The position numbers and the translations under genes were made by a program. A DNA stretch of 64,000 nt, from contig CBFIFL010000001.1 in the NCBI GenBank assembly GCA_965661855.1, positions 20,182 to 84,181 of the forward strand. Direction: 5' to 3'. Shown here one piece after another: positions 10,600-29,580 of this stretch (the first letter of the stretch is position 1; every line of letters begins with the position of its first letter). The notes beneath the pieces are model-generated. The model saw only the letters and a program-made list of their open reading frames with translations. It ran no database searches and was not told the origin of the DNA. Source of the DNA: Flavobacteriales bacterium (GTDB taxonomy: Bacteria > Bacteroidota > Bacteroidia > Flavobacteriales_C > CBFIFL01).

Positions 10600-12187
<1,588 letters not shown>

Positions 12188-12192
12188 CGTTT

Positions 12193-13989: not shown

Positions 13990-14657
13990 GCCTTTGAATA
14001 AAATATATTAATATCGCTTCTTCTTTTCATGACCTCATGAATCGGAAGCTTTTTAGTTTTATCGTTTAGAACCTGCCACTTGTCCATGCCCGAAATGAAA
14101 AGAATAATCGTTTGGGCAGAGCATATCAAGTCCATACCGCAGGTAATTCGATCTTGTGGGTGGTCTGGTGCGTTAGTATTGAAAATTGTTTTCTCTGATG
14201 ATTCATAAGCTGTTTTAGATCCTTCATCATCTGGGAATATAGATGCTGTGTGCCCATCTTTTCCCATGCCAAGTATAACTAAATCGGTGCGTTCGATAAA
14301 CGGGGTGTACTTTTCTCTTACGATTTGTAGGTTCTTGTATTTATCACTTTTATCAAATACCATTCCTGTTATGTTGTTTTTCTTCACCTTTTCATGCGTA
14401 AAGCAGTCTCGAATCAATCGCTCATTACTGAATTCACTCAGAGTATTAACATATCGCTCATCAACCAGTCCAAAATTTATGGAATCGATGAATTCACAAT
14501 TTTTATTCAATAACTTATATATTGGTCCAGGTGTGCTACCTCCCGACAGCAAAACCCTCACAGAATTATGCTTGGCGAGTGACTTTTCCATGGACATTAT
14601 TATGGAATTAACACCATTACTGATTAGATCCTCTTTATGATTGAAAGATTTTGTCAT
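13986..14657 (-). CDS. pgl: 6-phosphogluconolactonase
   Basis: Glucosamine-6-P isomerase/6PGL fold motifs (LLSGGSTP, GMGKDGHTASIFP). 4-nt overlaps with zwf and edd indicate an operon. Confidence 0.8.
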   Translation of the reverse strand: MTKSFNHKEDLISNGVNSIIMSMEKSLAKHNSVRVLLSGGSTPGPIYKLLNKNCEFIDSINFGLVDERYVNTLSEFSNERLIRDCFTHEKVKKNNITGMVFDKSDKYKNLQIVREKYTPFIERTDLVILGMGKDGHTASIFPDDEGSKTAYESSEKTIFNTNAPDHPQDRITCGMDLICSAQTIILFISGMDKWQVLNDKTKKLPIHEVMKRRSDINIFYSKA

Positions 14658-16108
14658 AATTCATTTGTATTCCATTTTACGTTTTCTTCCAATATTTGAT
14701 TACCAGGGCCCCATGAACCGGATTCATATAAGGTAAGAGGAACTTCTTCTTTCCAGTTCTTGGTAATTGACTCTATCCAGTGCCATGCAGCCTCAAGCTC
14801 GTCATGACGCATGAATAAAGTTTGATTCCCTCGAATAACATCCATAATTAGTCGTTCGTATGCATCTGGCATTCGGTTTTTGAATGAGTCAACAAAATCT
14901 AGTTTCAACGAAATAGGCTTAAATCTGTAGCCTCCCGGCCCTGGAACTTTACTTAACTGAACCAATTCAATTCGTTCTTCAGGTTGTAATCGTATAATTA
15001 ACTTATTTCGCAGTGGATATTTCGATTCTGGGAATATATTATGAGGAAGCTCCTTGAAATTGATGATAATATCCGAGTATCTTTTCTTCATCCGTTTTCC
15101 GGTACGCAGATATATAGGAGTGTTTTTCCAACGCCAGTTGTCGATGTTTGTTTTGATTGCAACAAAGGTTTCTGTTTCAGAATCGTAAGCGTCAATATCT
15201 TCTAAGTAAGAATTAAGTTTTTTATTGTCAACTGAACCTCTTGTGTATTGACCACGAACAACATCCTTATTTATTGTTTCTTTTGTGAAAGGACGCAAAG
15301 ACTGAAGTACTTTTAATTTTTCGTTTCTAACCGCATCAGGATTTAAATTTGAAGGAGGCTCCATGGCAATCAGACAGAGTAATTGAAGTAGATGGTTCTG
15401 CACCATATCTAACAATGCTCCGGTATGATTGTAATATCCTGCGCGTTTTTCAACTCCTAAGCTTTCTGCTACGGTAATTTGAATACTTTCAATATTGTCT
15501 GCATTCCAGGCTCTTTCAAAAAGATGATTGGCAAAGCGCAGCACCATTAGGTTCTGAACAGTTTCTTTTCCTAGGTAGTGATCAATTCTGAATATTTGAT
15601 GTTCATCAAAAGCGGTGGATATAATTTTATTTATTTCCTGACTAGATTTCAAGCTATTACCAAGTGGCTTTTCCAATACTACCTTACTTTCCTTTGTGAT
15701 CAAATCCGTTGCTTTCAATGCTTGACATATCTCTGAAAATGCACTTGAGGGAACAGAAAAGTAAAAAATTCGTTGTCTTTCAGGAGTCTTATCTAAATGC
15801 TTTTTAAGAGTTTGATAATGTTTTTGTTCGTTTTTTGCTATATGAACCAGTCTCAAGTTTTTAAAGAATTCATGTGTGTCATCATTTTCGGTTAATGAGA
15901 TGAATTCACTAACTTCTTTGATAAAATCATTTTTATCTAATTTTTCTCTGCACAAACATAGAATTTCAAACATCAAGTTAAGTTGACCTTCCTTAAATCT
16001 ATGAAAAAGAGCTGGGATTATCTTACGTTTAGACAAGTCTCCATTACCTCCGAATATCAAGATGTTGAAGGGTTTGAAGTCTGTTGAATTAACTCGATAT
16101 GATTTCAT
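14654..16108 (-). CDS. zwf: Glucose-6-phosphate 1-dehydrogenase
   Basis: Signature RIDHYLGKE, NAD(P)-binding N-terminus, 484 aa. Confidence 0.9.
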   Translation of the reverse strand: MKSYRVNSTDFKPFNILIFGGNGDLSKRKIIPALFHRFKEGQLNLMFEILCLCREKLDKNDFIKEVSEFISLTENDDTHEFFKNLRLVHIAKNEQKHYQTLKKHLDKTPERQRIFYFSVPSSAFSEICQALKATDLITKESKVVLEKPLGNSLKSSQEINKIISTAFDEHQIFRIDHYLGKETVQNLMVLRFANHLFERAWNADNIESIQITVAESLGVEKRAGYYNHTGALLDMVQNHLLQLLCLIAMEPPSNLNPDAVRNEKLKVLQSLRPFTKETINKDVVRGQYTRGSVDNKKLNSYLEDIDAYDSETETFVAIKTNIDNWRWKNTPIYLRTGKRMKKRYSDIIINFKELPHNIFPESKYPLRNKLIIRLQPEERIELVQLSKVPGPGGYRFKPISLKLDFVDSFKNRMPDAYERLIMDVIRGNQTLFMRHDELEAAWHWIESITKNWKEEVPLTLYESGSWGPGNQILEENVKWNTNEL

Positions 16109-16140
16109 AATTTAATGTTTGTCTCTTTAAATATAATACC

Positions 16141-16161
16141 TTTTTGTAAAAAGTACAATAA
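16141..16161. promoter_or_regulatory. 21-bp palindrome TTTTTGT-N7-ACAATAA in the divergent zwf / sugar-kinase intergenic region (candidate operator, site 1 of 4)
   Basis: Sequence tttttgtaaaaagtacaataa. Same 7-7-7 architecture as the sites at 20198, 29373 and 29560. Lies 54 bp upstream of the 16215 start. Confidence 0.5.
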
Positions 16162-16214
16162 CAAATATTTTTTTTATATATTTGATAGAGATAATGTAAA
16201 ACTTTAGTCACAGC

Positions 16215-17102
16215 ATGTTTGTAGTAGTTGAAAGTGGGTCGACAAAAGCGGATTGGATGGTAATTACCAATGGTGAAGAAAAAGCATACAGCACCAAAGG
16301 TTTTAATCCATACTTCCATTCAAAACAAGACATTTTGATCGAATTGAATGATCATCTTGAATTAGATCTTATTAAAGGAGAGGTAAAAGAATTGTATTTC
16401 TATGGTGCAGGATGTTCTAGTTCGGAATTGAATAAAATTATTGAAAACGGTTTGAAAGCCTTTTTTATCAACGCGAAAATAACAGTAAGCCACGACTTGA
16501 GTGCATGCGCATACGCCTGTTATAATGGTGTTTCGGAGATAGCATGTATTCTTGGAACGGGTTCCAATTCTTGTTTTTATGACGGTAACGAAGTTCATGA
16601 GGAACTCCCTGCATTGGGTCATATATTGGGAGATGAGGGGAGTGGAAGCTATTTTGGAAAAAGACTTTTAGCTGATTTTCTTTATGGTAAACTGCCGGCA
16701 CCTTTGCATCAAGAGCTAATCGGTAAAGGTTTAAATAGTGCGAGGATTATTGAAAATGTTTATCGAAAATCTAATGCTAATGTCTACATAGCATCTTTTA
16801 TGCCTGCGCTAGTAAGACACAAAGAGTTAGAATATTCTCAGAGTTTAATTAAAAAAGGCTTTAAAAAATTTATTGATACACATGTAAAGTGTTACAGTAA
16901 TTATAAGCAATGTGAAGTCAATTTTGTTGGATCTTTAGCGGATTTGCTTCAAGAAGAATTGATAGCGGTTTGTGAGGAATCTAATATAACGGTTGGACGA
17001 ATTATACGTAGACCACTGGATAATCTGGTTAGTTATCACAAAAACAAACAAGGAATGGCTCAAAAATCATTGAGTGCGAAGGATATAGATCAGTTGAATT
17101 GA
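16215..17102 (+). CDS. BadF/BadG/BcrA/BcrD-type ATPase family sugar kinase (N-acetylglucosamine kinase-like; candidate glucokinase)
   Basis: ASKHA-fold N-terminus MFVVVESGSTKADW and GTGSNSC motif. Length 295 aa. Confidence 0.65.
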   Translation: MFVVVESGSTKADWMVITNGEEKAYSTKGFNPYFHSKQDILIELNDHLELDLIKGEVKELYFYGAGCSSSELNKIIENGLKAFFINAKITVSHDLSACAYACYNGVSEIACILGTGSNSCFYDGNEVHEELPALGHILGDEGSGSYFGKRLLADFLYGKLPAPLHQELIGKGLNSARIIENVYRKSNANVYIASFMPALVRHKELEYSQSLIKKGFKKFIDTHVKCYSNYKQCEVNFVGSLADLLQEELIAVCEESNITVGRIIRRPLDNLVSYHKNKQGMAQKSLSAKDIDQLN

Positions 17103-17158
17103 TAAGCGTCTAGATACTCTGTTGTATCAACTACTATTTTAGTTATTAATTTTAAATT

Positions 17159-19447
17159 ATGGGAACAAGATTAATTCTTTTCACGATTAACTTTCTTTTC
17201 GGTTTTTTTGTTGTTTCGCAAAGTAAACCATCAATCTCATCACCTGAAATTGAAGCGGAAGTAAAGTCTATTCTGTCAGCTATGTCACTGGAGGAAAAAG
17301 TAGGTCAAACATGCCAAATAACTCTGGATGTTCTTTTGGAAATAGATGCTGAAGGAAAGATTGTTGAACCCATTCGTGTGGACAAGAAAAAGATTTATGA
17401 GGCTTTAGTGGAATACAAGGTGGGTTCAATATTGAATGTTGGTTGGCATACCTTGAGCATTGAAGAGTGGGATCATGTTATGGAGAATGTTCATTCGCCT
17501 TTCAAACAGGAAAAAGTAAAAACACCAATTATTTACGGGATTGATGCTATTCACGGTGTTAATTATACGATTAATGGAACATTATTCCCTCAAGAAATTG
17601 GCTTAGCAGCTACTTGGAACCCTGATTTAGCTAAGGAGTTTGGAAACGTTACAGCCTATGAAACTAGGGCTTCAGGAATACCTTGGAACTTTTCACCAGT
17701 TCTTGATTTAGGTCGTCAACCGCTTTGGTCAAGAACATTTGAAACACTTGGTGAGGACCCTTATTTGGCTTCTGAAATGGGTAAGGCAATAATTCTCGGA
17801 TATCAAGGAACTAGTGGCCCAGATTCAGTTCATGTAGCAGCATGCTTGAAACATTTTGTTGGATATAGTAATCCATTGAGTGGAAGAGACAGAACTCCAG
17901 CATGGATTCCTGAAAAGTACATGAGAGAATTATACATGCCGCCTTTTAAGGAGGCAATTGAGCAAGGAGCGCTTACAGTTATGGTTAATAGTGGAGTTGT
18001 AAATGGTGTTCCTGGACATGCAAATTATCACTTTTTGACAGAGGTTTTAAAGGAAGAATGGGGATTTGATGGGTTTGCCGTTTCTGACTGGGAAGATTTT
18101 CTAATGCTTAATACTGTGCACAGGACAGCAGAGTCTAAGAAGGCCGGTATTGTCCAGGCAATAAATGCGGGAATGGACATGAGTATGGTGCCTAATGCTC
18201 CGCAGTATATTGAGTATTGTGATTTAATGAAAGACGCTATCAACGAAGGGAGTATTTCGATGCAACGTTTAGATGATGCAGTGAGTCGTATTTTACGTGT
18301 TAAACTTATTCTTGGCCTATACGAAAAGAGGATGAATCAGTCCGGAGAATATCCAGATTTTGCATCAAAAGAGCATAAGGAATTGGCTTTGCAATCTGCT
18401 TTAGAGTCCATTACGCTTTTGAAAAACAATGGAGTTCTCCCTCTTAAGAAAGATCAGAAAGTACTCATTAGCGGTCCTACATCAAATAATTTGACATTCC
18501 TAAATGGAGCATGGACACATACTTGGCAAGGAGATAATCCAGATTTTAATACTTCTGGTAGACCAACAGTTCTGGAGGAATTTGAGCGTATTTTGGGTAA
18601 AGAGAATGTTCTTTTTAGTCAGGGAGTAGAACTTTTTGTAGAAGATCAGTATGAGACTGCAAGGTTATTGGATACTACTGATTTCAAAATAAAAGCTCAG
18701 CTTTCTGAGGTTATTGTTCTGTGTCTGGGTGAATATCCAGCTACAGAAAAACCAGGGGATATCCGTTCTTTGAATATATCTCCTGAACAAATCAAACTAG
18801 CTGAAATGGCTTATGCCACTGGAAAACCGGTTGTCATTATTTTAATTGAAGGACGTCCTCGAATTATTCGTGATATTGTAGATGAAAGTTCGGCTATTGT
18901 TCAGGCTTATCTTCCCGGAGATTTTGGTGCTGATGCATTAGGGCAGTTGCTTTTTGGAGAAGTGAATTTTTCGGGAAGGCTTCCTTATTCATATCCTAAA
19001 TATGATGGACAAATAGAATTTTATGACCATCCTAGAAGTGTAGATAGGCACAAAAATGGTTTTAACGCCTATCAACCTGAGTGGGATTTTGGCTATGGAA
19101 TCAGTTACGCTTCATATGAATATACAAACCTAACGCTCAGTAGAAAAAATATGACAAAAGAAGACTCAATTGTTGTAACTGTAGACGTTCACAATACAGG
19201 GAATGTCGATGGGAAAGAGGTTGTTCAGTTATATATATCTGACCATTTTGCATCGCTAATACCAGCTGGTAAATCGCTTAAAGGATTTTCAAAAATTGAA
19301 CTAAAAGCAGGAGAGACAAAGAAAGTCCGTTTTGTTGTTTATGAAGAAGATTTAGTATTTTATAAGGAAAACGAGGGCTGGATTTCCGAAAAAGGTGATT
19401 TTAGTGTCATGGTGGATAATTTAGAACAAACATTTCAACTTAAATAG
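17159..19447 (+). CDS. Glycoside hydrolase family 3 beta-glucosidase (BglX-like), secreted
   Basis: Signal peptide. GH3 N- and C-domain motifs (KHFVGY, catalytic GFAVSDW) and a C-terminal fibronectin-like domain. Length 762 aa. Confidence 0.9.
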   Translation: MGTRLILFTINFLFGFFVVSQSKPSISSPEIEAEVKSILSAMSLEEKVGQTCQITLDVLLEIDAEGKIVEPIRVDKKKIYEALVEYKVGSILNVGWHTLSIEEWDHVMENVHSPFKQEKVKTPIIYGIDAIHGVNYTINGTLFPQEIGLAATWNPDLAKEFGNVTAYETRASGIPWNFSPVLDLGRQPLWSRTFETLGEDPYLASEMGKAIILGYQGTSGPDSVHVAACLKHFVGYSNPLSGRDRTPAWIPEKYMRELYMPPFKEAIEQGALTVMVNSGVVNGVPGHANYHFLTEVLKEEWGFDGFAVSDWEDFLMLNTVHRTAESKKAGIVQAINAGMDMSMVPNAPQYIEYCDLMKDAINEGSISMQRLDDAVSRILRVKLILGLYEKRMNQSGEYPDFASKEHKELALQSALESITLLKNNGVLPLKKDQKVLISGPTSNNLTFLNGAWTHTWQGDNPDFNTSGRPTVLEEFERILGKENVLFSQGVELFVEDQYETARLLDTTDFKIKAQLSEVIVLCLGEYPATEKPGDIRSLNISPEQIKLAEMAYATGKPVVIILIEGRPRIIRDIVDESSAIVQAYLPGDFGADALGQLLFGEVNFSGRLPYSYPKYDGQIEFYDHPRSVDRHKNGFNAYQPEWDFGYGISYASYEYTNLTLSRKNMTKEDSIVVTVDVHNTGNVDGKEVVQLYISDHFASLIPAGKSLKGFSKIELKAGETKKVRFVVYEEDLVFYKENEGWISEKGDFSVMVDNLEQTFQLK

Positions 19448-19448
19448 T

Positions 19449-20147
19449 ATGTCTTATAAGATTAAGTTTGATAATTTTTTCTCTTACTCATTCTCTTTAG
19501 ATTGTGTCATTTTTGGTTTTAAAGAAGGAAAGTTACATGCATTGTTGATTAAAAGAGCAATGGAGCCATACATGGGCGAGTGGGCAATTCCTGGAAATCT
19601 TGTTTATCCCGATGAAGATTTACCTGATGCGGCGAATAGAATTCTCACAGAGTTGACAAAAGTTAAAAATGTAGTTCTTCATCAAGGTCAAACATTTGGT
19701 AAACCAAATAGACATCCTCAAGGTCGCGTAATTACTAATGCTTACTTTGCTTTAGTTAGGATTGACGAAATAAATGCTTTTGCCGCTTCATGGGCAGAGG
19801 AAGTAAAATGGGTTCCGGTTAAAGAGTTACCGAGTTTAGCATTCGATCATAAAAAGATATTAGACTCTACATTTGAATTATTAAAGCAAAAACTGAAACA
19901 TGAACCTATTTGTTTCGATCTTTTACCAAAGAAGTTTCCACTGGTTGAAATGCAAAATCTTTATGAATATGCTTTCGACTCTGCATTAGATAAAGCTAAT
20001 TTTAGAAAAAAAATTAAGTCAATACCATTAATTAATCTGGAAGAAAAACAGCAGAATGTTAAACATCGTCCTGCAAATCTATTCAAATTCGATATTCAAC
20101 GTTTTTCAGAGATGGTAAAAGAGGAAAACTATCTTTTCAGAATGTAA
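19449..20147 (+). CDS. Nudix hydrolase-fold transcriptional regulator (NrtR-like; candidate sugar-utilisation regulator)
   Basis: N-terminal Nudix fold (GEWAIPGNLVYPDEDLPDAANRILTELT) followed by a C-terminal domain of about 90 aa, the expected size for the winged-helix domain of NrtR-type regulators. Starts 2 bp after the GH3 gene. Confidence 0.5.
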   Translation: MSYKIKFDNFFSYSFSLDCVIFGFKEGKLHALLIKRAMEPYMGEWAIPGNLVYPDEDLPDAANRILTELTKVKNVVLHQGQTFGKPNRHPQGRVITNAYFALVRIDEINAFAASWAEEVKWVPVKELPSLAFDHKKILDSTFELLKQKLKHEPICFDLLPKKFPLVEMQNLYEYAFDSALDKANFRKKIKSIPLINLEEKQQNVKHRPANLFKFDIQRFSEMVKEENYLFRM

Positions 20148-20197
20148 ATTCAAAATATTTTTAGTTTTTAACTAAAAAAAACCTGTAAAAATTTGAC

Positions 20198-20218
20198 TTA
20201 TTGTATTATTAACAATAA
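20198..20218. promoter_or_regulatory. 21-bp perfect palindrome TTATTGT-N7-ACAATAA (candidate operator, site 2 of 4)
   Basis: Sequence ttattgtattattaacaataa, 22 bp upstream of the ATG at 20240. Confidence 0.55.
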
Positions 20219-20239
20219 CTTATTGTAAAATTAAAATTA

Positions 20240-21109
20240 TTGATTATGAAAAAATTATACTCTTTGATAGGAGCATCTTTTATTGTTGCTTCTTCATTTT
20301 CTCAAAACGATGTTATGGTCAGTGCTACCGATAACTGGGTTGCTTATGTGAATGTATTTGATTTACCGGCTAATGGTGGAGGCTATTTGTGGGGAAGTTC
20401 TTGGGAAGTTTCTGAAGTGAAAACTACCCTGGATCTTACTGAGAATACGGTAACTTTACAACCTAACTTCGGGTTGTATGCGGCAGATCCCACTGATGCT
20501 TATTGGGTTGACCAATCAACAATGGATGGTAACAAGTTTCTTGAAGCTTCAACTTTTGTTGAGCCAGGACCTTCTTTTAATGGCAATGATTTAACATTCC
20601 ATGGTGATATTTTATCGAATACTTTAGATCTGACTCAGTATGAGGCGCTATTTTTTATTAAAGCTTTGGATTCATTAAATGGATACCAAGATGCTTTTGG
20701 GGGATCGCAAATATATACTATGCCTTCAAGTGGATCGTTTACTGTTAGTGTCGCTGCAGCAGATATTCCTTCAGGGTTAATTGTTCAGTATGGATTTTCA
20801 GTGAGAGGAATTAATGCGGATCCTATGGATGAGAATTCATTGGGGAGTGTTGTGCTGGGAATGGATCTTACAGGTGTAAATGAATCAACAGAAGTTCAAG
20901 TCGGATTATATCCAAACCCTGCGTCAAATAATCTAAATATTTCAACGGCGGATGATGTAAATAGTATTAATATAACGAATTACGCAGGACAAACGGTTTA
21001 TTCGGGTTCAGATCGTTCAATTGATATATCTGATTTAAAGAACGGTGTATATTTTGCTCAAATTTCAACAGATAAAGGTGTGGTTACAAAGCAGTTTGTT
21101 AAAAACTAG
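20240..21109 (+). CDS. Secreted protein with T9SS type-A C-terminal sorting domain. Possible glycan-binding protein.
   Basis: Signal peptide. C-terminal roughly 80 aa match the Por/T9SS sorting-domain pattern (LYPNPASNNLNIS...NGVYFAQISTDKGVVTKQFVKN). Confidence 0.6.
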   Translation: MIMKKLYSLIGASFIVASSFSQNDVMVSATDNWVAYVNVFDLPANGGGYLWGSSWEVSEVKTTLDLTENTVTLQPNFGLYAADPTDAYWVDQSTMDGNKFLEASTFVEPGPSFNGNDLTFHGDILSNTLDLTQYEALFFIKALDSLNGYQDAFGGSQIYTMPSSGSFTVSVAAADIPSGLIVQYGFSVRGINADPMDENSLGSVVLGMDLTGVNESTEVQVGLYPNPASNNLNISTADDVNSINITNYAGQTVYSGSDRSIDISDLKNGVYFAQISTDKGVVTKQFVKN

Positions 21110-21144
21110 AAAAGTAAAAATTCAGTCAGTTTTACAGTAAAGTA

Positions 21145-21172
21145 GAGGGGAGGTTTTGCTCCCCTTTTTATT
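21145..21172 (+). terminator. Rho-independent terminator after the 20240..21109 gene
   Basis: GAGGGGAGgttttgCTCCCC followed by TTTTTATT. Confidence 0.6.
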
Positions 21173-21178
21173 GAAATC

Positions 21179-22180
21179 ATGAGAAATTTATTAATTATAA
21201 TAGTTCTGTTGTTTCCATTACTAGGAAGCTCACAGCAATGGGTTCAGGTTTGGTCAGATGAATTCGATGGTACTGCATTGGATTTAACTAAATGGGAACA
21301 TGAAATTGGAACAGGTAATTGGGGATGGGGTAACAATGAACTTCAATATTACACTAGCAATTCTAATAACATTTATCTTGATACAGGTTATCTTCACATT
21401 GTTGGTCGTCAGGAGCAAGTAGCCGGCTCATATTATACTTCTGCACGAATAAAAACTCAAGGTAAATTCGATTTCCAATATGGAAAAGTAGAAGCTAGGA
21501 TTAAGATCCCTTCTGGTCAGGGATTATGGCCTGCTTTCTGGATGCTTGGCTCAAACATAACGACCGTAAGCTGGCCTATGTGTGGAGAGATTGATATTAT
21601 GGAGCATGTAAACAATGAGCTAATGATACACGGAACCATTCATTACGATATGTGGGGACACACATATGAGGGTACACATGTATATACTGACGCATCAGAT
21701 TGGCATACTTACTCTATTGAATGGGATCAAGATGAGATTCGATGGTATCTTGATGAAGTAGAGTTTAATTCAACCAATATTGGAACAGGATCTGTTTCAA
21801 GAGAGGAATTTCATAATCCATTTTTCTTGCTTCTAAATCTTGCAATAGGTGGTAATTGGACCGGTAGTCCTGATGGTTCAACCAGTTTTCCTGCAATGAT
21901 GCAGGTTGATTATGTACGTGTTTATCAAGAGAGCAATAGTTTAAATGAGAATAAGGCAGAACAAACACTCACTGTTTCTCCAAATCCATCAGCTGAGTCA
22001 ATTACAATTTCATCAGATTTAAATCTGACTGAGTATACTGTTTACAATTTACAAGGTAAAAAGTTGTTTAGTGGAAATAATACAATAATTGATATTTCAT
22101 ATCTTGATTCTGGGATGTATCTCATTGATGTTAAACTCGAAACAGGTCAACAAATTAGAAGTTCTTTCATCAGAGAATAG
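21179..22180 (+). CDS. GH16 family endo-beta-1,3-glucanase (laminarinase) with T9SS C-terminal sorting domain
   Basis: GH16 catalytic motif GEIDIMEH (ExDxxE). Signal peptide. C-terminal sorting domain (LTVSPNPSAESITI...GMYLIDVKLETGQQIRSSFIRE). Confidence 0.85.
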   Translation: MRNLLIIIVLLFPLLGSSQQWVQVWSDEFDGTALDLTKWEHEIGTGNWGWGNNELQYYTSNSNNIYLDTGYLHIVGRQEQVAGSYYTSARIKTQGKFDFQYGKVEARIKIPSGQGLWPAFWMLGSNITTVSWPMCGEIDIMEHVNNELMIHGTIHYDMWGHTYEGTHVYTDASDWHTYSIEWDQDEIRWYLDEVEFNSTNIGTGSVSREEFHNPFFLLLNLAIGGNWTGSPDGSTSFPAMMQVDYVRVYQESNSLNENKAEQTLTVSPNPSAESITISSDLNLTEYTVYNLQGKKLFSGNNTIIDISYLDSGMYLIDVKLETGQQIRSSFIRE

Positions 22181-22220
22181 TTTGAGATATTATAAGAGGT
22201 CAAATTCAGTTGTTTTACTG

Positions 22221-22254
22221 TGGTTTAAACTATTAAATCTAGCGGTTTAAACCA
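22221..22254. terminator. Perfect 10-bp inverted repeat (TGGTTTAAAC-N14-GTTTAAACCA) between convergent genes. Probably a bidirectional terminator.
   Basis: Seen directly in the sequence. Flanked by a T-run on the left and an A-run on the right. Confidence 0.45.
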
Positions 22255-22282
22255 GAAAAAGATATAACGGGTGAAGATGTGC

Positions 22283-23530
22283 CTATTTCAATTTCAATGC
22301 TCCCCATAATGATGGAGAAAGATGAAATCCGCCTTGATCTCCACTGTTCCATCTCAATTGAGTCTGTCGACCATTATTCGTTCCTAAATCAATCGCTATC
22401 TCCATATCAATTATGGATCCTGACGCAGGCGAGAAGTTTCTAAAAGCATTAAAAGGTATTGCTATTTCTACTATGTACCCACTATCAATAGCTTTGAAAG
22501 CTATTTGCGCATTCTCAATTTTTGAGTCTGTTTTCCAGTTCCACATATATGGATTAACTCCACAGTTAACTCCTACGTGCTGATCACTGAGCAATAAATA
22601 AGGTCTTGTAGGATCAGCAGAGGGATTTGTGGAAAAAGCAATTTCAACAGCGTCTCCGTTCCATAAATTGCTCCCTTTTTGATCATTTTGACGAGGTGTT
22701 TCATCTTTTGTTTTAAAAGCTATGTATAGATTCTCTTCATTATATGCTATGGAAAACTCCTGATCTTTTAGCATTTGAAAATCTCCTTTCCATTCCGAAA
22801 TATCACCATCAACCTTAATATTTTGGACTTCTGCCGAAACCTCTTTTCTACCTCCTCCTGAAAAGGGAATTAACTTGATTGATTTGATTTGAATTTCTCC
22901 TTCAGCGAAAACTTGAATCAGTAATTGTTTAATATTAGAAGCATCTAATTTGTAAGCTTTAATAGGGAACTTACTCAATGGAATTTGAACTTTAGTCCAT
23001 TCTGCTGAAATAGATTCCTCTTGTAGAAAAGCAATATCATATCCCAGCCATGCTTGGGTTCCGCTATAATCCTCTAAGCAAAAAGCCCATGGTATATTGG
23101 TAAAGTTTTCACCTGTAGATCGAACAATCAATTCAATGGCTAAAGTGTCGATAACATAATTTAAATCTTTTCCTTTCCATCCATCCCAACCAAAGCCCAT
23201 TCCAACCCAGTCGCATCCATTTTGATCACTATTCCATTTAACATTCAAAATATTTTGAACATCATCTTCTAGTAATTTACCGGAAATACATGATACACTT
23301 TCGGTTGACCAGAAGTCTATAAGGCTTCCGTCAAAAATGTCTAATTTTGTAAAACCACGAATATTGTATTCTTCTTCGTATTCTCCATGATATAATCCAA
23401 GCTTTTTTATTCGGATTTTTTTATCAGAGTTACGCTCTTTATTTAAGTCAAGAGTGTCCTGCGCCACGATTGTTAATGTGGAAATTAGAAAAGCTAAAAG
23501 CAATTGTACTTTATGGTTGAAGTGGTGCAT
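22283..23530 (-). CDS. Secreted hypothetical protein (415 aa), possibly carbohydrate-binding. Last gene of the five-gene minus-strand operon.
   Basis: Signal peptide. Trp/Gly/Asp-rich beta-type composition. Overlaps the upstream gene by 20 nt. Confidence 0.5.
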   Translation of the reverse strand: MHHFNHKVQLLLAFLISTLTIVAQDTLDLNKERNSDKKIRIKKLGLYHGEYEEEYNIRGFTKLDIFDGSLIDFWSTESVSCISGKLLEDDVQNILNVKWNSDQNGCDWVGMGFGWDGWKGKDLNYVIDTLAIELIVRSTGENFTNIPWAFCLEDYSGTQAWLGYDIAFLQEESISAEWTKVQIPLSKFPIKAYKLDASNIKQLLIQVFAEGEIQIKSIKLIPFSGGGRKEVSAEVQNIKVDGDISEWKGDFQMLKDQEFSIAYNEENLYIAFKTKDETPRQNDQKGSNLWNGDAVEIAFSTNPSADPTRPYLLLSDQHVGVNCGVNPYMWNWKTDSKIENAQIAFKAIDSGYIVEIAIPFNAFRNFSPASGSIIDMEIAIDLGTNNGRQTQLRWNSGDQGGFHLSPSLWGALKLK

Positions 23531-24491
23531 TCTCTGTAAATATTATGTAATCTAAACCTGATTTTGCAAACCCTGAAGAAGGATCGGCAAGATGCAAGAA
23601 ACTTACTTTGTTTAATTTATCCGGATCAAAATTTCCATTACCATTTCCTCCGCCGTCTAAGTCTGAGTATTTAATTGAAATCAATCTCCATCCTTCCCAA
23701 TCGATCGGGAATTCATAGGAATATTGGTCTTCTGATTGAACATCAAAACTACCATCCTCATTTTCATCCTCATCAAAGCGGAATTGAGCCAATGTATTTG
23801 GAAGTCCGGATTCACCGTAAACAAGGGCGTTAAAATATAGGTTATCACCGTTGCTTGAAAGAGGTAGTGTTGTCTCTCCATATGCACTGGCATTGAAATC
23901 AATCAAACCAATAAGCCAGTCCCAATTTACAGTTCCTTGCATGTTATAATAACCATCATTTTGAGGAGCTGCAGCGTCAGTTTTAATACTGAAATCCATG
24001 TTCGCTCCTGATTGAATAAATGTAGACCAGCCATTGTTCCAACCTGATTCAAAATCTGCAACTACAAAGCCGTTATTAACTTTAGGTTGGTCTATAATTA
24101 CTGTTGTTAACAAGGTGTCTGTTTCTCCTTCAAAGGATAGCATTATATCACATGTCTCCGCTCTAAAAATCGGGAAGTATGTGGTACTTCCATTCCATAG
24201 AGTATTGACTTCATCTAAAACTTTACTCGTCCCAGAAATGATTTTCTGAGATCCACTGATTTGACCAGTTATCGTTAATTCCCAATCTACTATTTTAGTG
24301 AGTTCACAATTAAAGTAAACATCTTGACCTCCAGCAAAATCTACGCTGGTTTGACTCGCACTTAGAGTGGTTAATATTCCAAAATCTCCATATACATCAT
24401 AAAGATCGGGACCGTCAATTTTATCATCTGCCCCTTTTCTACAGGAAATCAGGACGGTTACTATTAAAATAAAGGATAAGTACTTTTTCAT
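23511..24491 (-). CDS. Lipoprotein, hypothetical (326 aa)
   Basis: Lipobox (VLISCRKG). Tight spacing within the operon. Confidence 0.5.
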   Translation of the reverse strand: MKKYLSFILIVTVLISCRKGADDKIDGPDLYDVYGDFGILTTLSASQTSVDFAGGQDVYFNCELTKIVDWELTITGQISGSQKIISGTSKVLDEVNTLWNGSTTYFPIFRAETCDIMLSFEGETDTLLTTVIIDQPKVNNGFVVADFESGWNNGWSTFIQSGANMDFSIKTDAAAPQNDGYYNMQGTVNWDWLIGLIDFNASAYGETTLPLSSNGDNLYFNALVYGESGLPNTLAQFRFDEDENEDGSFDVQSEDQYSYEFPIDWEGWRLISIKYSDLDGGGNGNGNFDPDKLNKVSFLHLADPSSGFAKSGLDYIIFTENAPLQP

Positions 24492-24495
24492 CGCA

Positions 24496-26187
24496 TTAAA
24501 ATTTCATCACATAAAAAATAGACATTTGATTAAATGTATATGGATTATCAACTACAAAAGTGTTAGTGTTACTCTCATACATTGCTGCTAGATATGCTTT
24601 TTTAGAAAAATCAAATCTCAATCCACTAGCTATATTTAATTCATTTCCATCTACAATAAAGTCGTTGTAATTTATAATTACATCATCGGCATTTCTGTCT
24701 GGTAATTGGTCCTTTCCCGTTGCTTTCATTAGGAAGAGATTACCCATTATAAATAAGTCGTCGATCAACTCTGCTTCTAGACCGAAGTTGATCAATGTTG
24801 AAGTTAGGTCAACATTTTGGAAAGTAAATTCACCATTTCTTGTTGTTTGTTGAAGAGTGACGCCTAACTGAGCATTTAACTCTTTTTTTCCTCCCCATAG
24901 TTTATTAGCATGAAGTGCTCCGTTCATGTTCGCTATCAGGAAAGATTTTAGATTTGTTGTTCCTTGGCCACGTATTTCAGATAGGTAGTATAATTTACCA
25001 TTTGTTTCAAAGATTTGTTTTTTATCAGAGTAATTAACCCCCATATAGGCACCTCTTCTGTTAAAAGTTGCAATTCCAAATGGGAGAGCATTATTTACGG
25101 CAGGATTATAATCCATAACACCAACTGAAATACCTTGATTTATTAAATTAGGGTCATTGTACATGTCGAACATTGATACAGGTCTCAAAATCTGTGAGTT
25201 TGTATAACGATTATAAAAACTATTTTGTTGATTGAAATTTACCCGTCGTGATTGAGCTCCAAAGCTTCTAAAATCAGGACCGTTATCCATATATCCAAAA
25301 TTGAAATTCAATCTTAATTTCTTTAAGTTCAAATAAGCACGTGTATGAACGAAATAGTCTGAAAGCTCTTTTTCAGGATAGAGGCTTTCAGAGGTAATTC
25401 CAATACCTGATTCGCCATCTAACCCATAAGTGAATTGCTCATTTTCAAATTGGAAATCGTAAGTAAAGGTACTTACGTTATTATTATAAATATTGCTATC
25501 TATTGCTGTTCCAGCTAAATCGAATACACTCACATGATTCAGACCAAGCTTAACATTTTCACCTTGGTTTATCACCATATTTCCTCCACCATAAAGTCGT
25601 TCTAAAATACTATTCAAATCAGTTGGATTAAGTCGTGAAATGAATCCATTGAATTCAATTTCGTCAATTATTTTAGGGAACTGCAAAGCGAAATTAACAG
25701 AGGCTCCTTGTTGACGCCATGTATTATTACTATAAAATGATTCATAATTTAAAACATCTTCTTTGATTTTCAGCACGCCTAATGAAGAGGTAAGGAAATC
25801 AGTATTGTGATTATAAAATGTATATGGTGTTAATTTGTAGTCAATATTTCCAATATGATAGCGCACTACATCCGCTGCAACGCCTCGAACATATAATTGA
25901 CGAACATCAAAAGATACACTACCACCCCAGAAACCTCCAAAAGCATTGTTAATCCTAAACATTCCCAAAACTTCCGTTTTTTGATTTGGATTAATTTTGA
26001 TCCCAAGGTCAAGTAAAGCGTAACCTCCAGATGATTTTGGTGCTGTAATAGAATCATTTTCAGTCATGAATTTTGAATTCGTAACCTGTGATCGTGCACC
26101 GCCAATAAATTGTACTTTCTTGCCTTGCTGCGAAAAAGCAGAAGTTGAGCACATAAACGTTAATATGATAATTGAAATACTTCTCAT
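24496..26187 (-). CDS. Predicted outer-membrane beta-barrel protein (563 aa), family unknown (porin-like)
   Basis: Signal peptide. Alternating amphipathic beta-strand composition rich in Y/N/G/F. C-terminal aromatic residue (…YVMKF). Adjacent to the next gene with zero spacing. Confidence 0.5.
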   Translation of the reverse strand: MRSISIIILTFMCSTSAFSQQGKKVQFIGGARSQVTNSKFMTENDSITAPKSSGGYALLDLGIKINPNQKTEVLGMFRINNAFGGFWGGSVSFDVRQLYVRGVAADVVRYHIGNIDYKLTPYTFYNHNTDFLTSSLGVLKIKEDVLNYESFYSNNTWRQQGASVNFALQFPKIIDEIEFNGFISRLNPTDLNSILERLYGGGNMVINQGENVKLGLNHVSVFDLAGTAIDSNIYNNNVSTFTYDFQFENEQFTYGLDGESGIGITSESLYPEKELSDYFVHTRAYLNLKKLRLNFNFGYMDNGPDFRSFGAQSRRVNFNQQNSFYNRYTNSQILRPVSMFDMYNDPNLINQGISVGVMDYNPAVNNALPFGIATFNRRGAYMGVNYSDKKQIFETNGKLYYLSEIRGQGTTNLKSFLIANMNGALHANKLWGGKKELNAQLGVTLQQTTRNGEFTFQNVDLTSTLINFGLEAELIDDLFIMGNLFLMKATGKDQLPDRNADDVIINYNDFIVDGNELNIASGLRFDFSKKAYLAAMYESNTNTFVVDNPYTFNQMSIFYVMKF

Positions 26188-28089
26188 TTAAAAGAATATT
26201 TTTAATTCAACAGTAGTTTCTTTTCCTTTATATTGATCTAGTTCAAAACTATAATCACGGTAGTTTATCCATCTGTGTCTGATGTATAAACCGGTATTAC
26301 GCGACATTTGTATATCTAATCCTAAAGCATAGCTTATTCCTTCTTGATTTTTTGGGGCTAGAGAAAGGGTGTTTAGCTCAGTGTTGTCCCCTCCATATAT
26401 TCTGTCGTATCCGAGATAATGGCATAGGACTATATTTTTAGACAGCGAGTAGTATAGATCAAGTTGATGATTGTAGCTCTGTAAATAAGCCTTTTTCGAA
26501 TACACTGGTAGAACTGAAAAGTCGCGCTGAACCGTATGGAATCCTCCTAAATAGAAGAACATTAATTTTCTATTGAAAACTTTTGTAAATGTTTTAAAGC
26601 TAACTTCCACTGAATTAAATCCTTTAGCCGAAACAGAATCGGTAATTAGCATAGTTTCATATACACCACGATAGATTTTGCTGATGTTTTGGTATGGTCC
26701 AACACCACTTGGGAAACCCCAACGCCAGAATCTTGAAAGTGCTAAGTTGTTTGCAGGGTGACCATATGTTATTCGATCTGAAATTCCTTCAATTTCCTTT
26801 GCTGCACTATATCCGATCGTCAATTTGCTTCGTCCTAACTTTAAGTCAGTATTAAGAATGATTCCTTGACGGTTATTAGTCATTTGTCCAATAGTTGTTT
26901 GAGAGCTTGCAAAAGGGAATAGCAAAGGAGCCTGACCTGGGTCTTGTTGAGCATATTGTTGTGAATACTCTTGAATAGAAGTATTCCAGAAAATACCATT
27001 ATTATTAAGTACTCTTGGACTAACTCGGAAATAACGAATTTCTATAGGAAAAGGAGTCATGGATTCCAGCAGGTTTAATTTAATATCCATAACTTCTCCC
27101 CATTGTCCTTCATGATTAGGTGAAAAATAATTACCTGATCCAAATTCTCCCGATAATTTCATTTTATTTTCAAAATTTAATTGAAATTCGGATGTAATCA
27201 TATTGAATCCAACAAGATCCTGGGCTAAACTATCCGAGTAAGTTTGATTGCGAATAGCATTAAAACTTACAAAGTTATCTTTAATGTTTTTACGGATTTT
27301 ACCACCTGTGAGCTGATTAGGTAGGGGAGCGCTACCACCATTTAATTGAGATTTTCCGTGCATGAACGCAAATGAAAAATCGTTAGGTAAACTCTGACCA
27401 TCAAAGATAAAACCATGAAAAGCCTGTTGTCCCCATCTTACATCTTGTGTTAGTGCTCCATTATTATAAAAAGTGTCATAACGCTCGAAAATGTTTTTTG
27501 TGTTAGGATCCCATGGATTACGTTCGAATAAACTGTATCTATTATATCCTGTATTAGAAGAGAAGGTTAACGGAGAAAGCTTATACCAGTGAATCCCTCC
27601 TGTTTTTACACTAAAGGTTCCGTATTTTGTTGAGTGGGATCCATCTAGGTTAATTCCGAGTAAAAGACCTTTAACGTAGCTTTCATCATCCCCCGTCATA
27701 GGGTTCCATAAATACAAGTCAGTTGAAATTGAGGTGTTTTTTGACGGGCTTATCCCTAACGTTAAGCTCAATTCGGGCAGGTTACTATCATCTCCGATAA
27801 ATACAGTGTTTTTTACGCTTCCCATTTCCGGATATAATTTACTCATTGAAGTGTATGCTCCTAAGAATCTATAATACCCGTTTACAGAAATGTTTGACAA
27901 TCCTTTTTGATAATTTTTCGGCTCAAGACCACCATTGTCTGGCTTAAACATACTTAAGTCAGAGGCAGTCTGTCCCATAGCTCCAAAAACTGACGTCAGA
28001 GCCAAAAAGATGAGTGTTATTTTAATATTCAGTTGGCTCAAGGTCTTGTATTTTAAATTTAACGTTATTAAACTCTTGTAAAGAATCAT
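26188..28089 (-). CDS. Predicted outer-membrane beta-barrel protein (up to 633 aa), family unknown. The true start is probably downstream of the listed ATG.
   Basis: Hydrophobic signal-like segment (ITLIFLALTSVFGAMG), then a beta-rich sequence ending …VELKIFF. The listed ATG overlaps the upstream GH gene by 68 nt, so a later start is likely. Confidence 0.5.
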   Translation of the reverse strand: MILYKSLITLNLKYKTLSQLNIKITLIFLALTSVFGAMGQTASDLSMFKPDNGGLEPKNYQKGLSNISVNGYYRFLGAYTSMSKLYPEMGSVKNTVFIGDDSNLPELSLTLGISPSKNTSISTDLYLWNPMTGDDESYVKGLLLGINLDGSHSTKYGTFSVKTGGIHWYKLSPLTFSSNTGYNRYSLFERNPWDPNTKNIFERYDTFYNNGALTQDVRWGQQAFHGFIFDGQSLPNDFSFAFMHGKSQLNGGSAPLPNQLTGGKIRKNIKDNFVSFNAIRNQTYSDSLAQDLVGFNMITSEFQLNFENKMKLSGEFGSGNYFSPNHEGQWGEVMDIKLNLLESMTPFPIEIRYFRVSPRVLNNNGIFWNTSIQEYSQQYAQQDPGQAPLLFPFASSQTTIGQMTNNRQGIILNTDLKLGRSKLTIGYSAAKEIEGISDRITYGHPANNLALSRFWRWGFPSGVGPYQNISKIYRGVYETMLITDSVSAKGFNSVEVSFKTFTKVFNRKLMFFYLGGFHTVQRDFSVLPVYSKKAYLQSYNHQLDLYYSLSKNIVLCHYLGYDRIYGGDNTELNTLSLAPKNQEGISYALGLDIQMSRNTGLYIRHRWINYRDYSFELDQYKGKETTVELKIFF

Positions 28090-29350
28090 CTACGTAAAAA
28101 GGTACATTCATGTAAGCAAGTTTTTCTCCATCTGTAACAAATACAAACAAACGATATCGTCCTTCAGAAGTAGGAGCTTTTAAAGTAATTTTTTCTGATT
28201 TTCCTCCTTTGATTTTTCCAGTAATTATAGGTGGTTTTCCTTCAGCATCACCTCCAGTTTTTAAATCTGTACTTTCTGGATATAGTTCCCAACGATAGGA
28301 AAGATTGTCCTTGTTTGAATCCGATGCATAAACCTGGACACTATATTTATCTCCCGGAACTAAAATAGTGTTCATTAGCTTGGAGTGTTCACCAAAAGTC
28401 AGACTGTCAATGGAGGGGGATCTTTTTTCTGGATAAGAACCTTTCCAACAGTATTGAAGAACATCAATAGCTTCAGTGGGTATCCCTTCTTCAGAGAACA
28501 AACCATACCAGGTACTCGTGTATTCTTGTTTTTGACCCCAAAGAAAAGCAAAGGACCCAATACATTGTTTCTTTTGTGAATCGATATTTTCTTGGTAGCG
28601 ACTTAGATAGGAGTTTGCTTTTGCGGTACTGGATTGTTCAACAGATGCTCCCCACATGGTCTTTTTAATTTCCCAGTGCCCTGTTGGTCCCCATTCCGTT
28701 ATCATATAAGGGCCATTGAAATTACCTTCTTTCAATACCTTTTTTACGTTAACAATATCGGCATAAGTATTTATTCCATATATGTCAACTTCGGTGAGTT
28801 CCTCCATTACAAATTTTAATTTATCTGCATTTGTCCCTGCAGTAACGGTAGATGTTGGATGATAGGGATCTTCTTCATGAATCATTTTGGCAATATCATT
28901 GACTGCTTTCCATACTTTAGTGTTTGAATAATTCAGCTCATATTCGTTTCCTATACCCCACACAAGAAGGGCAGGGTGTTCTTTATATTTTTGAACCTCT
29001 TTTCTGAATCTATCAAGTTGTGCTTTTACACGTTCTTTGTTGTTGTAGTCGAAGCCATGGCGTTCGTGTTGTACCCACAAACCTAACATTACCTTCAGAC
29101 CTTTTTTATGAGCTTCATCAAGCACTTGCTGTGCATTTTCTGTTCCCCAGGTTCGGATGGTGTTTCCTCCTGCACCTATTAATATGTCAAGATATTTATC
29201 ACCTCCGGCGCCTTTAATGAAGTAAGGCTCATCATTTACCATCAGTTTCCAATTGCCATCTTTTTCGTTTATACTAACCTTGCATACTTGAGTATGCGAA
29301 TTAACACATATAAACATAAGGGCTAGTAGGTATACAAAGTTTTTTATCAT
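28022..29350 (-). CDS. TIM-barrel clan GH-A glycoside hydrolase, GH158-like (candidate endo-beta-1,3-glucanase)
   Basis: Signal peptide. GIGNEYEL has Glu at residue 136 and MITEWGP has Glu at residue 219, matching the acid/base and nucleophile positions of clan GH-A. Length 442 aa, with a beta-rich C-terminal domain of about 100 aa. Confidence 0.6.
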   Translation of the reverse strand: MIKNFVYLLALMFICVNSHTQVCKVSINEKDGNWKLMVNDEPYFIKGAGGDKYLDILIGAGGNTIRTWGTENAQQVLDEAHKKGLKVMLGLWVQHERHGFDYNNKERVKAQLDRFRKEVQKYKEHPALLVWGIGNEYELNYSNTKVWKAVNDIAKMIHEEDPYHPTSTVTAGTNADKLKFVMEELTEVDIYGINTYADIVNVKKVLKEGNFNGPYMITEWGPTGHWEIKKTMWGASVEQSSTAKANSYLSRYQENIDSQKKQCIGSFAFLWGQKQEYTSTWYGLFSEEGIPTEAIDVLQYCWKGSYPEKRSPSIDSLTFGEHSKLMNTILVPGDKYSVQVYASDSNKDNLSYRWELYPESTDLKTGGDAEGKPPIITGKIKGGKSEKITLKAPTSEGRYRLFVFVTDGEKLAYMNVPFYVDDSLQEFNNVKFKIQDLEPTEY

Positions 29351-29372
29351 CTAACAATCGTCTAAAAATTAG

Positions 29373-29393
29373 TTATTGTAAAATATACAATAA
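29373..29393. promoter_or_regulatory. 21-bp perfect palindrome TTATTGT-N7-ACAATAA (candidate operator, site 3 of 4)
   Basis: Sequence ttattgtaaaatatacaataa, 23 bp upstream of the GH158-like start on the minus strand. Confidence 0.55.
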
Positions 29394-29559
29394 TATGTTG
29401 TTTTTTCATAAATTAAAATATGATAATATTACCTTAGAATAAAAAAGGTTACTGTTATCAGTATAAATTTTTATAAATAGATTGCCATTAAAGTTTCATT
29501 TCAAGGAATAAATTAAACGCTTGATAATTTATTTATAAAACACATTTTTCTTACATTAC

Positions 29560-29580
29560 TTATTGTAACATCTACAATTA
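29560..29580. promoter_or_regulatory. 21-bp palindrome TTATTGT-N7-ACAATTA (candidate operator, site 4 of 4)
   Basis: Sequence ttattgtaacatctacaatta, 27 bp upstream of the SSS transporter ATG. Confidence 0.5.

Follow-up and report, generated by a model that had tools for sequence, protein, structure and literature searches.

A 64-kb window of DNA from a Flavobacteriales bacterium (assembly GCA_965661855.1, contig CBFIFL010000001.1, positions 20,182 to 84,181; all coordinates below are those of the window) contains four copies of a 21-bp palindrome, TTATTGT-N7-ACAATAA, in a block of genes for beta-1,3-glucan breakdown, sugar uptake and the Entner-Doudoroff pathway. The block also encodes a 232-amino-acid-residue regulator of the NrtR family (19449..20147, + strand). 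From sequence comparison we consider it likely that the palindrome is the operator of this regulator, which would act as an autoregulated, sugar-released repressor of five transcription units with about 18 genes in this marine member of the Crocinitomicaceae.

A pattern search found the four copies at the positions and with the letters given in the initial annotation of this DNA. None of them is assigned to a strand. Operator 1 (16141..16161; TTTTTGTAAAAAGTACAATAA) has one mismatch and lies in the control region between the divergent zwf and kinase-GH3-nrtR units (GH, glycoside hydrolase family). Operator 2 (20198..20218; TTATTGTATTATTAACAATAA) has perfect palindrome arms and lies 51 bp past the nrtR stop codon. 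Operator 3 (29373..29393; TTATTGTAAAATATACAATAA) is perfect and precedes the GH158 operon, and operator 4 (29560..29580; TTATTGTAACATCTACAATTA), with one mismatch, precedes the gene of a sodium:solute symporter (SSS). With up to one mismatch allowed, the 64 kb contain these four matches, compared with 0.06 expected from 100 dinucleotide shuffles (maximum 1). The observation of four copies is thus confirmed and lies far above chance. With two mismatches allowed, just two extra matches appeared, at 22068 and 38293, each within an open reading frame (ORF).

A position weight matrix (PWM) trained on 27 sites, all from other genomes and none from the window, gave the same result. It ranked the four operators first in the 64 kb, with scores of 28.2 (operator 3), 24.3 (operator 1), 23.1 (operator 2) and 18.0 (operator 4); the next scores were 12.7 and 6.2, and the block-shuffled window gave 0.09 hits scoring 14 or more. 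PWM hits fell only within the glucan/uptake/Entner-Doudoroff block (10600-31634), to which the motif had been said to be confined. The site scoring 12.7, TTAGTGGAAATAATACAATAA at 22068-22088, is below threshold and lies towards the 3' end of the coding sequence of GH16.

Three of the operators are close to start codons. Operator 3 is 22 bp from the ATG of the GH158 gene and operator 4 is 26 bp from that of the symporter gene; for operator 2 the distance is 27 bp if the ATG at 20246 is the start and 21 bp if it is the TTG at 20240. This agrees with the spacings of 22 to 27 bp reported initially. The ATG codons next to operator 1 are farther off, 32 bp for zwf and 53 bp for the kinase gene. One base past operator 2 there is a degenerate second copy, TTATTGTAAAATTAAAATTAT (20220-20240), of which only the left half is good (PWM 6.0). 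Tandem second sites stronger than this copy were seen in the related loci L011 and L016-L018, and tandem sites have been described for AraR too.

The regulator has many orthologues with 66-81% identity, which, where named, belong to Crocinitomicaceae, Crocinitomix and Fluviicola. A scan of species-representative genomes yielded 21 orthologous loci. The order of the zwf-pgl-edd-eda operon, the divergent kinase-GH3-nrtR unit, the unit of a type IX secretion system (T9SS) protein and GH16, and the GH158 operon recurs in L007, L009 and L012 and is found in part in L001, L008, L010 and L021. In the L013-L019 group, GH3-nrtR, a T9SS protein with a carbohydrate-binding module (CBM48), GH16 further on and the GH158 operon are kept. 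Taken separately, kinase-GH3 synteny was found in L001, L007-L010, L012 and L021, and GH158 operon synteny in L007, L009, L012, L013, L017 and L019.

The motif occurs at matching places in the orthologous loci: between zwf and the kinase gene, after nrtR, before GH158 and before the symporter gene. A comparison with related genomes had been proposed in the initial annotation, and in it the motif is conserved at orthologous promoter positions. In six loci the zwf operon is divergent from the kinase gene with a site between them. When seven orthologous zwf-kinase regions were aligned (alignment A1, 58% mean column identity), operator 1 was the invariant core, and in an alignment of 11 regions downstream of nrtR (A2, 39% mean column identity) the operator 2 motif was the sole invariant block. 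The intergenic regions between GH158 and SSS genes (A3) have diverged beyond alignment, and sites there were located by the PWM. An orthologous site was found immediately 5' of GH158 in L007, L009, L012 and L055, and a site before the SSS orthologue in L010 and L055, where the symporter and a gene with a methylglyoxal-synthase-like (MGS-like) domain are on the + strand, about 1 kb apart. In L007 (19323-19486) the fourth site precedes not a symporter gene but a gene whose product starts with MKELIQNFPHQLKESLHIADSYQ, and the contig ends there. We take this N-terminus to resemble sugar isomerase (SIS)-type phosphoglucose/phosphomannose isomerases.

In the 383 kb made up by the window and the 21 loci, all 52 PWM hits scoring at least 16 were intergenic, where intergenic DNA is 8.4% of the bases; this count includes the training sites of the PWM, and AT-rich motifs are in any case commoner between genes, which makes the scan of the window the cleaner test. 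The hits sit up to about 55 bp 5' of the start codons of one recurring gene set. In all cases the gene that a site precedes is one of the following: a T9SS protein gene (often with carbohydrate-binding modules) that has GH16 behind it; GH3; GH158; the symporter gene; zwf; or the kinase gene. The gene after the nrtR-downstream site is a T9SS protein gene elsewhere too, often with CBM48 or CBM35, and is followed by GH16. Apart from L004, all orthologous loci of sufficient length have a site next to nrtR, and in the window a site also precedes the nrtR-containing operon. Through the varied gene orders of L002-L006, L013-L019 and L070, the motif follows the regulator gene.

These observations bear on whether the copies have any regulatory role. 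The motif is AT-rich and of low complexity, the intergenic DNA of the host is AT-rich as well, and operator 2 trails a stop codon, all of which would suit chance matches, repeats like miniature inverted-repeat transposable elements or repetitive extragenic palindromes, a terminator or another structural element. We regard this explanation as extremely unlikely, given the shuffled expectation above and positions that are held where the surrounding intergenic DNA is just 39-58% identical. An RNA or DNA hairpin or intrinsic terminator was rejected, with folding energies of merely -1.4 to -5.4 kcal/mol and no T-tract. A stem was likewise rejected, since in 19 of the 41 unique sites the bases at positions 5 and 17 are not complementary. 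Changes in the arms are mostly uncompensated (T/C 6, G/A 5 and T/T 5, compared with G/C 2), which is the pattern of two protein-bound half-sites rather than of a stem. Rfam found no structured RNA at the sites in the window. A dispersed or mobile repeat was also ruled out, because similarity ends at 21 bp except for a tAC shared on one side.

The motif has the form of an NrtR operator. NrtR operators have been published as 21-bp palindromes with the core GT-N7-AC (PMC2330246), and the length that the initial annotation gave for them is correct. The four window sites are 21-bp palindromes with GT-N7-AC, near the regulator gene and its putative targets. The clade consensus is tAC-TTATTGTA-N5-TACAATAA, with T4, G6 and T7 and A15, C16 and A18 invariant; G6 T7 and A15 C16 do not vary across 38 oriented sites. 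In the crystal structure of BtAraR with DNA, the contacted bases are G7-T10 and A18-C21; among them, G9/T10 and A18/C19 are the GT and AC found ±5 and ±4 from the dyad (PMC4666351). G6/T7 and A15/C16 of the motif occupy exactly these contacted positions.

The protein encoded at 19449..20147 had been annotated as an NrtR-like regulator, and its domains bear this out: Pfam identified NrtR_WHD (6.3e-18; 65 bits, cut-off 27), NUDIX (4.3e-11; residues 19-138) and AraR_C (3.5e-9). The nearest solved structure is BtAraR (BT0354; PDB 5bs6, 5dd4, 5ddg and 5deq; PMC4666351), the L-arabinose repressor of Bacteroides thetaiotaomicron, with E 1.6e-50 and 42% identity over 207 residues for 5bs6. It is followed by the NrtR of Shewanella, SoNrtR (3gz5), with 1.5e-21. 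The window protein has an N-terminal Nudix-fold domain and a C-terminal NrtR-type winged helix, whose recognition helix reads DKANFRKK compared with DKRNFRKR in BtAraR. Its Nudix signature, GX5EX7REUXEEXGU, is impaired and reads G49-NLVYPDEDLPDAAN-R64-ILTELTKV: the REUxEExGU stretch has become R-I-L-T-E-L-T-K-V, and the Gly and two of the three catalytic Glu residues are gone. AraR shows a comparable loss of the signature (PMC4666351).

The BtAraR residues named in PMC4666351 were mapped onto the alignment with the window protein. The Arg/Arg/His triad that binds sugar hydroxyls (R34, R86 and H131) is kept as R36, R88 and H134; among orthologues, R36 is almost invariant, and R88 and H134 do not vary. 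The lining of the pocket differs by F36M, G48N, F49L and G89Q. The residues of SoNrtR that bind the ADP-ribose phosphates, Lys76, Asn43 and Arg98, are replaced by Leu (Leu69 at Lys76), Met and Gln. The DNA contacts K179, N181, K184 and R205 of BtAraR are conserved.

The window protein falls outside two described subgroups. It scored 139.4 bits with the NCBIfam equivalog of canonical NAD-type NrtR (NF050029), for which the cut-off is 400. The AraR (BT0354) orthologous group is marked by absolutely conserved K179, R180, N181, K184, K204 and R205, a GTGT half-site and a regulon of arabinose genes. The window protein has Ala in place of R180 and His in place of K204, the half-site is TTGT, and ara genes are absent from the block. 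The Ala, at position 183, was ruled out as the determinant of a TTGT rather than a GTGT half-site, as a clade with Arg there (represented by L079, see below) has the same TTGT operator.

The promoter consensus of Bacteroidetes is TTG-N~19-TAnnTTTG. A candidate -7 box of zwf, TATATTTA (16128..16135, - strand), lies 5 bp from operator 1; it reads TAnnTTTG in orthologues, where it forms a conserved column block of A1, and a TTG in the right half of the operator, 20 bp upstream, is placed as a -33 element. A candidate -7 box of the kinase-GH3-nrtR unit, TATATTTG (16177..16184, + strand), is a perfect TAnnTTTG, located 15 bp 3' of operator 1 and present in six of the seven orthologous regions. The operator 1 core in A1 is flanked by these two conserved, outward-pointing TAnnTTTG-type boxes, and a dimer on operator 1 would sit over the -33 regions of the two divergent promoters. 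At the promoters of T9SS proteins, the operator centre is often itself TAnnTTT(T/G). A perfect TATATTTG stands at the centre in L002, L005 and L020, 34 bp ahead of the ATG, and in these loci the operator and the -7 box would overlap. The initial annotation had put the operators over the -7 to +1 region, which would suit many T9SS-protein promoters but not operator 1, which lies over the -33 element and spacer. A sigma-70 scan of the window found 79 promoter-like sites, compared with 72.9 expected, and 11 terminator-like sites, compared with 11.5; it is uninformative. The organism has the Bacteroidetes promoter type.

The operator positions appear to agree with repression. Operator 1 is upstream of both candidate -7 boxes and over the -33 regions, where class II activators also sit, and the protein could be an activator or a dual regulator instead. 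This seems improbable to us, as NAD-type NrtRs, BtAraR and the Mycobacterium protein MsNrtR are repressors that are freed from DNA by their ligands (PMC2330246, PMC4666351, PMC6800001). Operators 2 to 4 are 22-27 bp from the start codons, a distance at which the core promoter or the start of the transcript has to lie, and in several orthologues the operator centre is a TAnnTTTG box.

The gene identities given initially are borne out by Pfam, NCBIfam and PDB sequence searches. The zwf-pgl-edd-eda-gap operon (10600..16108, - strand; NCBIfam zwf 1e-161, edd 9e-273, eda 5e-57) encodes the oxidative pentose-phosphate/Entner-Doudoroff enzymes and glyceraldehyde-3-phosphate dehydrogenase; neighbouring genes in it overlap or are separated by no more than 7 bp. 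On the + strand, the kinase-GH3-nrtR unit begins with a BadF/BadG-type sugar kinase (16215-17102; PDB 1zxo 7e-56), which is probably a glucokinase and which matches the Tannerella kinases of N-acetylmuramic acid (MurNAc) and N-acetylglucosamine (GlcNAc) at about 1e-44 in the PDB sequence search. The kinase gene is followed by that of a GH3 beta-glucosidase (17159-19447; Pfam 1.5e-69), and nrtR, 1 bp past the GH3 stop codon, is the last gene of the unit. A T9SS-secreted protein (20246-21109, +; Pfam Por_Secre_tail) and a GH16 laminarinase with a T9SS tail (21179-22180, +; Pfam GH16, PDB ZgLamC 4crq 6.5e-74) form the next unit. Convergent with it is a five-gene operon (22283..29350, -) headed by a GH158 endo-beta-1,3-glucanase (28022-29350; PDB 9oro 1e-94, BuGH158 6pal 1.5e-63). 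Its other products are two predicted outer-membrane barrels of unassigned family, with 633 residues (26188-28089) and 563 residues (24496-26187), a 326-amino-acid-residue protein (23511-24491) and a CBM9/CBM30 protein (22283-23530; CBM9 by Pfam), all on the - strand. The SGLT-like SSS symporter (29607-31259, +; NCBIfam sss 6.7e-119) is followed by an MGS-like protein of 120 residues (31272-31634, +; Pfam MGS 7e-15). An MGS-like gene also trails the symporter gene in L010 and L055, and there is a similar gene in the pfk-gap-kinase operon of L148.

The predicted products of the block make up a complete route from laminarin to oligosaccharides, glucose, glucose-6-phosphate, 2-keto-3-deoxy-6-phosphogluconate (KDPG), and pyruvate plus glyceraldehyde-3-phosphate. 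No SusC/SusD pair was found in the locus, there are no NAD-metabolism genes among those identified in 10600-31634, and the block has no second conserved regulator gene.

By analogy with BtAraR and NAD-type NrtR, the apo dimer would bind the four operators, on or beside core promoter elements. It would thereby keep five units repressed, namely zwf-pgl-edd-eda-gap, kinase-GH3-nrtR, T9SS protein-GH16, the GH158-barrel-barrel-326aa-CBM9 operon and the SSS symporter (with the MGS-like gene), and control of the second of these would make the regulator autoregulated. When a free sugar occupies the Nudix-like pocket, the winged helices would rotate, and the DNA would be released. The likeliest sugar would be D-glucose, released from laminarin by the GH16, GH158 and GH3 enzymes and imported by the symporter. 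Depolymerisation of beta-1,3-glucan outside the cell, uptake, phosphorylation and Entner-Doudoroff catabolism would then all be under a single switch. The single circuit that the initial annotation had read into the block is supported, in sequence terms, by the regulator family, the operator architecture, the confinement of the motif to the block and its conservation in orthologous loci.

Several points weigh against this reading, and some of them would suit a different binder. The palindrome might be bound by another transcription factor encoded elsewhere, with the NrtR-like gene as a mere member of the regulon or a Nudix enzyme. L004 (10001-10900) has an 80%-identical orthologue alone, with no regulon genes; no recognisable site was found within 10 kb of it, and just a decayed TTATTCTACGTTTTACTTACA follows the stop codon. 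The regulator thus occurs without the site, and the sequence also occurs without an NrtR gene nearby, in L089 and in many metagenome matches. The motif is AT-rich and palindromic, and an exact scan of all metagenomes gave mostly chance matches, with 74 of 80 loci in unrelated DNA having no regulon gene. The motif is too short and AT-rich to be tested for enrichment over the whole collection, and the genome-wide test proposed in the initial annotation is meaningful only inside the clade; the informative loci of the scan were L055, L070, L079, L090 and perhaps L039. Together with the array in L089 described below, these chance matches indicate that the sequence may serve other proteins, so that the binder is not identified by the sequence alone. 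Two residues of BtAraR, the intercalating Arg180 and Lys204, are Ala183 and His in the window protein, and details of DNA recognition would therefore differ from the sole solved complex. Operator 4 has the lowest score of the four (PWM 18.0), and no promoter box could be placed near it. The glucokinase label rests on context, because the closest characterised relatives act on MurNAc and GlcNAc. The pocket is close to the arabinose pocket, and therefore glucose specificity is not readable from the sequence.

A different binder is nevertheless very unlikely in our judgement. The motif has the exact geometry of the NrtR family and travels with the regulator gene (L002-L006, L013-L019, L070), the block contains no other conserved regulator gene, and a second NrtR clade, 45% identical and with a different regulon, has the motif in its own divergent promoter. 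From these points we infer that the NrtR-family protein itself binds the four sites.

The array in L089 (2201-2504; Ga0129333_10101230) consists of seven tandem copies of the operator 21-mer, ACTTATTGTACTTTnTAC(A/C)ATAACTA, flanking a (GCGTGC)n-like tract. It is beside small phage- or plasmid-like ORFs, and an NrtR gene is absent from the contig. It looks like the iterons of a replication origin.

The second clade was found through L079, where an NrtR-like protein, 45% identical and carrying 15 extra residues within the Nudix domain, is encoded divergently from a kinase-betaPGM-GH65-GH13 operon (betaPGM, beta-phosphoglucomutase). The divergent gap holds a site with a PWM score of 27.7. Relatives of this protein, P0122 (L143) and P0138, have the same divergent arrangement, and in L143 the single best PWM hit of 16.7 kb (28.5) is in the gap between kinase and regulator genes. 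This independent clade shares the motif in front of its own predicted maltose/alpha-glucan operon.

The comparison of the two clades points to the effector. The TTATTGTA operator is shared by a beta-glucan and an alpha-glucan regulon, and all that these have in common is glucose and the kinase, not the type of linkage in the glucan. With this overlap and the conserved neutral-sugar triad, D-glucose is therefore the best candidate, and we give it about an even chance of being the effector. A regulator that binds these sites might respond instead to a laminaribiose-type beta-1,3-oligosaccharide, glucose-6-phosphate, 6-phosphogluconate, KDPG or ADP-ribose. The choice of glucose is purely inferred, the pocket differs from that of BtAraR at the four positions given above (F36M, G48N, F49L, G89Q), and the regulon of the window includes Entner-Doudoroff genes. 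In Proteobacteria, the Entner-Doudoroff regulator HexR senses KDPG. HexR is a local repressor of zwf-pgl-edd-eda, gap and glucose uptake and kinase genes and thus a functional analogue, but its protein family (RpiR), operator and effector are unrelated to the window system. We hold one of these other effectors to be rather unlikely. The H-bonding triad of BtAraR for a neutral sugar is kept, and the SoNrtR residues that bind the phosphates of ADP-ribose are replaced by Leu, Met and Gln. A beta-linked oligosaccharide is not a signal shared with the sister clade, which has the same operator and controls maltose/alpha-glucan genes. BtAraR senses free L-arabinose, and xylose is predicted for XylR (PMC4666351).

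More distant clades (41-45% identity) are located beside pfk-gap-kinase-betaPGM-GH65-GH13 with SusC/D, beside genes of a major facilitator superfamily (MFS) transporter and a kinase with GH13/GH31, or beside pfk-gap-kinase-MGS-HAD (HAD, haloacid dehalogenase). Their promoters have TAAGTGTA-N5-TACACTTA palindromes with an AraR-like GTGT half-site (L145, 9179; L146, 7914 and 11618; L148, 5021). The PWM found no hits in the distant NrtR loci L144-L148. These clades have a different half-site or, in L147 and L144, no obvious site. A Thermaurantimonas relative is in a non-sugar context, and no site was found there. The genes of this branch are mostly divergent from their neighbours, which are the Entner-Doudoroff genes in the window clade and pfk-gap-kinase-betaPGM-GH65-GH13, MFS-kinase or SusC/D alpha-glucan genes in others. 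Tentatively, and with slightly less than even confidence, we suggest that an undescribed, widespread branch of NrtR may be the master switch of glucose/glucan catabolism in non-Bacteroides Bacteroidota (Flavobacteriales, Sphingobacteriales and relatives), with TTATTGTA-N5-TACAATAA or TAAGTGTA-N5-TACACTTA operators, and that in marine Crocinitomicaceae the regulator would also drive a laminarin uptake system independent of SusC/D, with two outer-membrane barrels of unassigned family at its core.

BtAraR is the closest known system. It shares with the window regulator the two-domain build, the degenerate Nudix box, the Arg/Arg/His triad and the 21-bp operator, and also the location of sites, some of them tandem, near the starts of sugar-catabolic or glycoside-hydrolase operons and of the regulator gene inside a regulated operon. 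They differ in the half-site, which is TTATTGTA in the window and AAAGTGT(T/A) for BtAraR, T replacing G at -7. They differ also in the regulon, as that of the window has beta-1,3-glucanases, a beta-glucosidase, a hexose-type symporter, a kinase and the Entner-Doudoroff operon instead of arabinose genes. Canonical NrtRs (SoNrtR and those of Synechocystis and Mycobacterium; PMC2330246, PMC6800001) are ADP-ribose-responsive repressors of NAD synthesis with the same family domains, a 21-bp GT-N7-AC operator and the logic of a ligand-released repressor, which for the window protein is assumed by analogy. They are far more distant (E 1.5e-21), and their contacts to the phosphates and adenine of ADP-ribose are replaced here, as in AraR.

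NrtR types have been recruited to sugar catabolism before. XylR (BT0791) and the Bacteroidetes-1a/b/c groups, whose targets in some species include the pentose-phosphate pathway, were described by Rodionov et al. 2008 (PMC2330246); by that description they are predicted pentose sensors beside xylAB or araBAD. For pentoses, AraR has been characterised and XylR predicted (PMC2330246, PMC3878776, PMC4666351). The full-text literature searched, which did not extend to subscription journals and RegPrecise, had no description of a regulator of the NrtR type for laminarin, glucan, glucose, glycolysis or the Entner-Doudoroff pathway. The glucan/Entner-Doudoroff role would be a new function within the known NrtR family, with a well-supported predicted regulon. 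Glycan-degrading loci of Bacteroidota, too, are controlled by their substrates or products, usually through SusR, hybrid two-component systems, extracytoplasmic function (ECF) sigma/anti-sigma pairs or GntR regulators such as AusR (PMC7641319). Unlike these, the proposed cytoplasmic one-component repressor would control central catabolism as well as the machinery outside the cell and in the outer membrane.

Laminarin ranks among the largest marine pools of organic carbon, and Flavobacteriia are its main consumers in algal blooms. How laminarin genes are switched is poorly known, and SusR, two-component or ECF-sigma systems are usually considered. If the proposal is true, glucanases that are secreted or sit in the outer membrane are tied to uptake and Entner-Doudoroff catabolism by a one-component repressor, and sugar sensing by the NrtR family is widened from pentoses to hexoses and glucans. 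The motif can be used for annotating glucan regulons in metagenome-assembled genomes of uncultured Crocinitomicaceae, and the hypothesis is precise and cheap to probe, with one protein, four 21-mers and a few ligands.

The two barrel genes (24496-28089, - strand) occupy the spot where a SusC/SusD pair is expected. Their products of 633 and 563 residues had no match by Pfam, NCBIfam or PDB sequence search. The 633-residue protein has 477 homologues, mostly from Crocinitomicaceae, and the named ones are all 'hypothetical'. Its AlphaFold (AF2) model is a large outer-membrane-type beta-barrel (pLDDT 73, pTM 0.71), which resembles porins, sugar porins and TonB-dependent barrels just generically (TM 0.2-0.4). 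As the locus has no SusC/SusD, this conserved pair of predicted barrels is a candidate for a SusC/D-independent outer-membrane step of glucan uptake. As listed, the GH158 and 633-residue ORFs overlap by 68 bases (28022-28089). Most homologues of the 633-residue protein have about 615 residues, and the real start is therefore probably about 17 codons further downstream. The sole Rfam match of the window was a tRNA gene at 31955-32028 (- strand; 71.4 bits).

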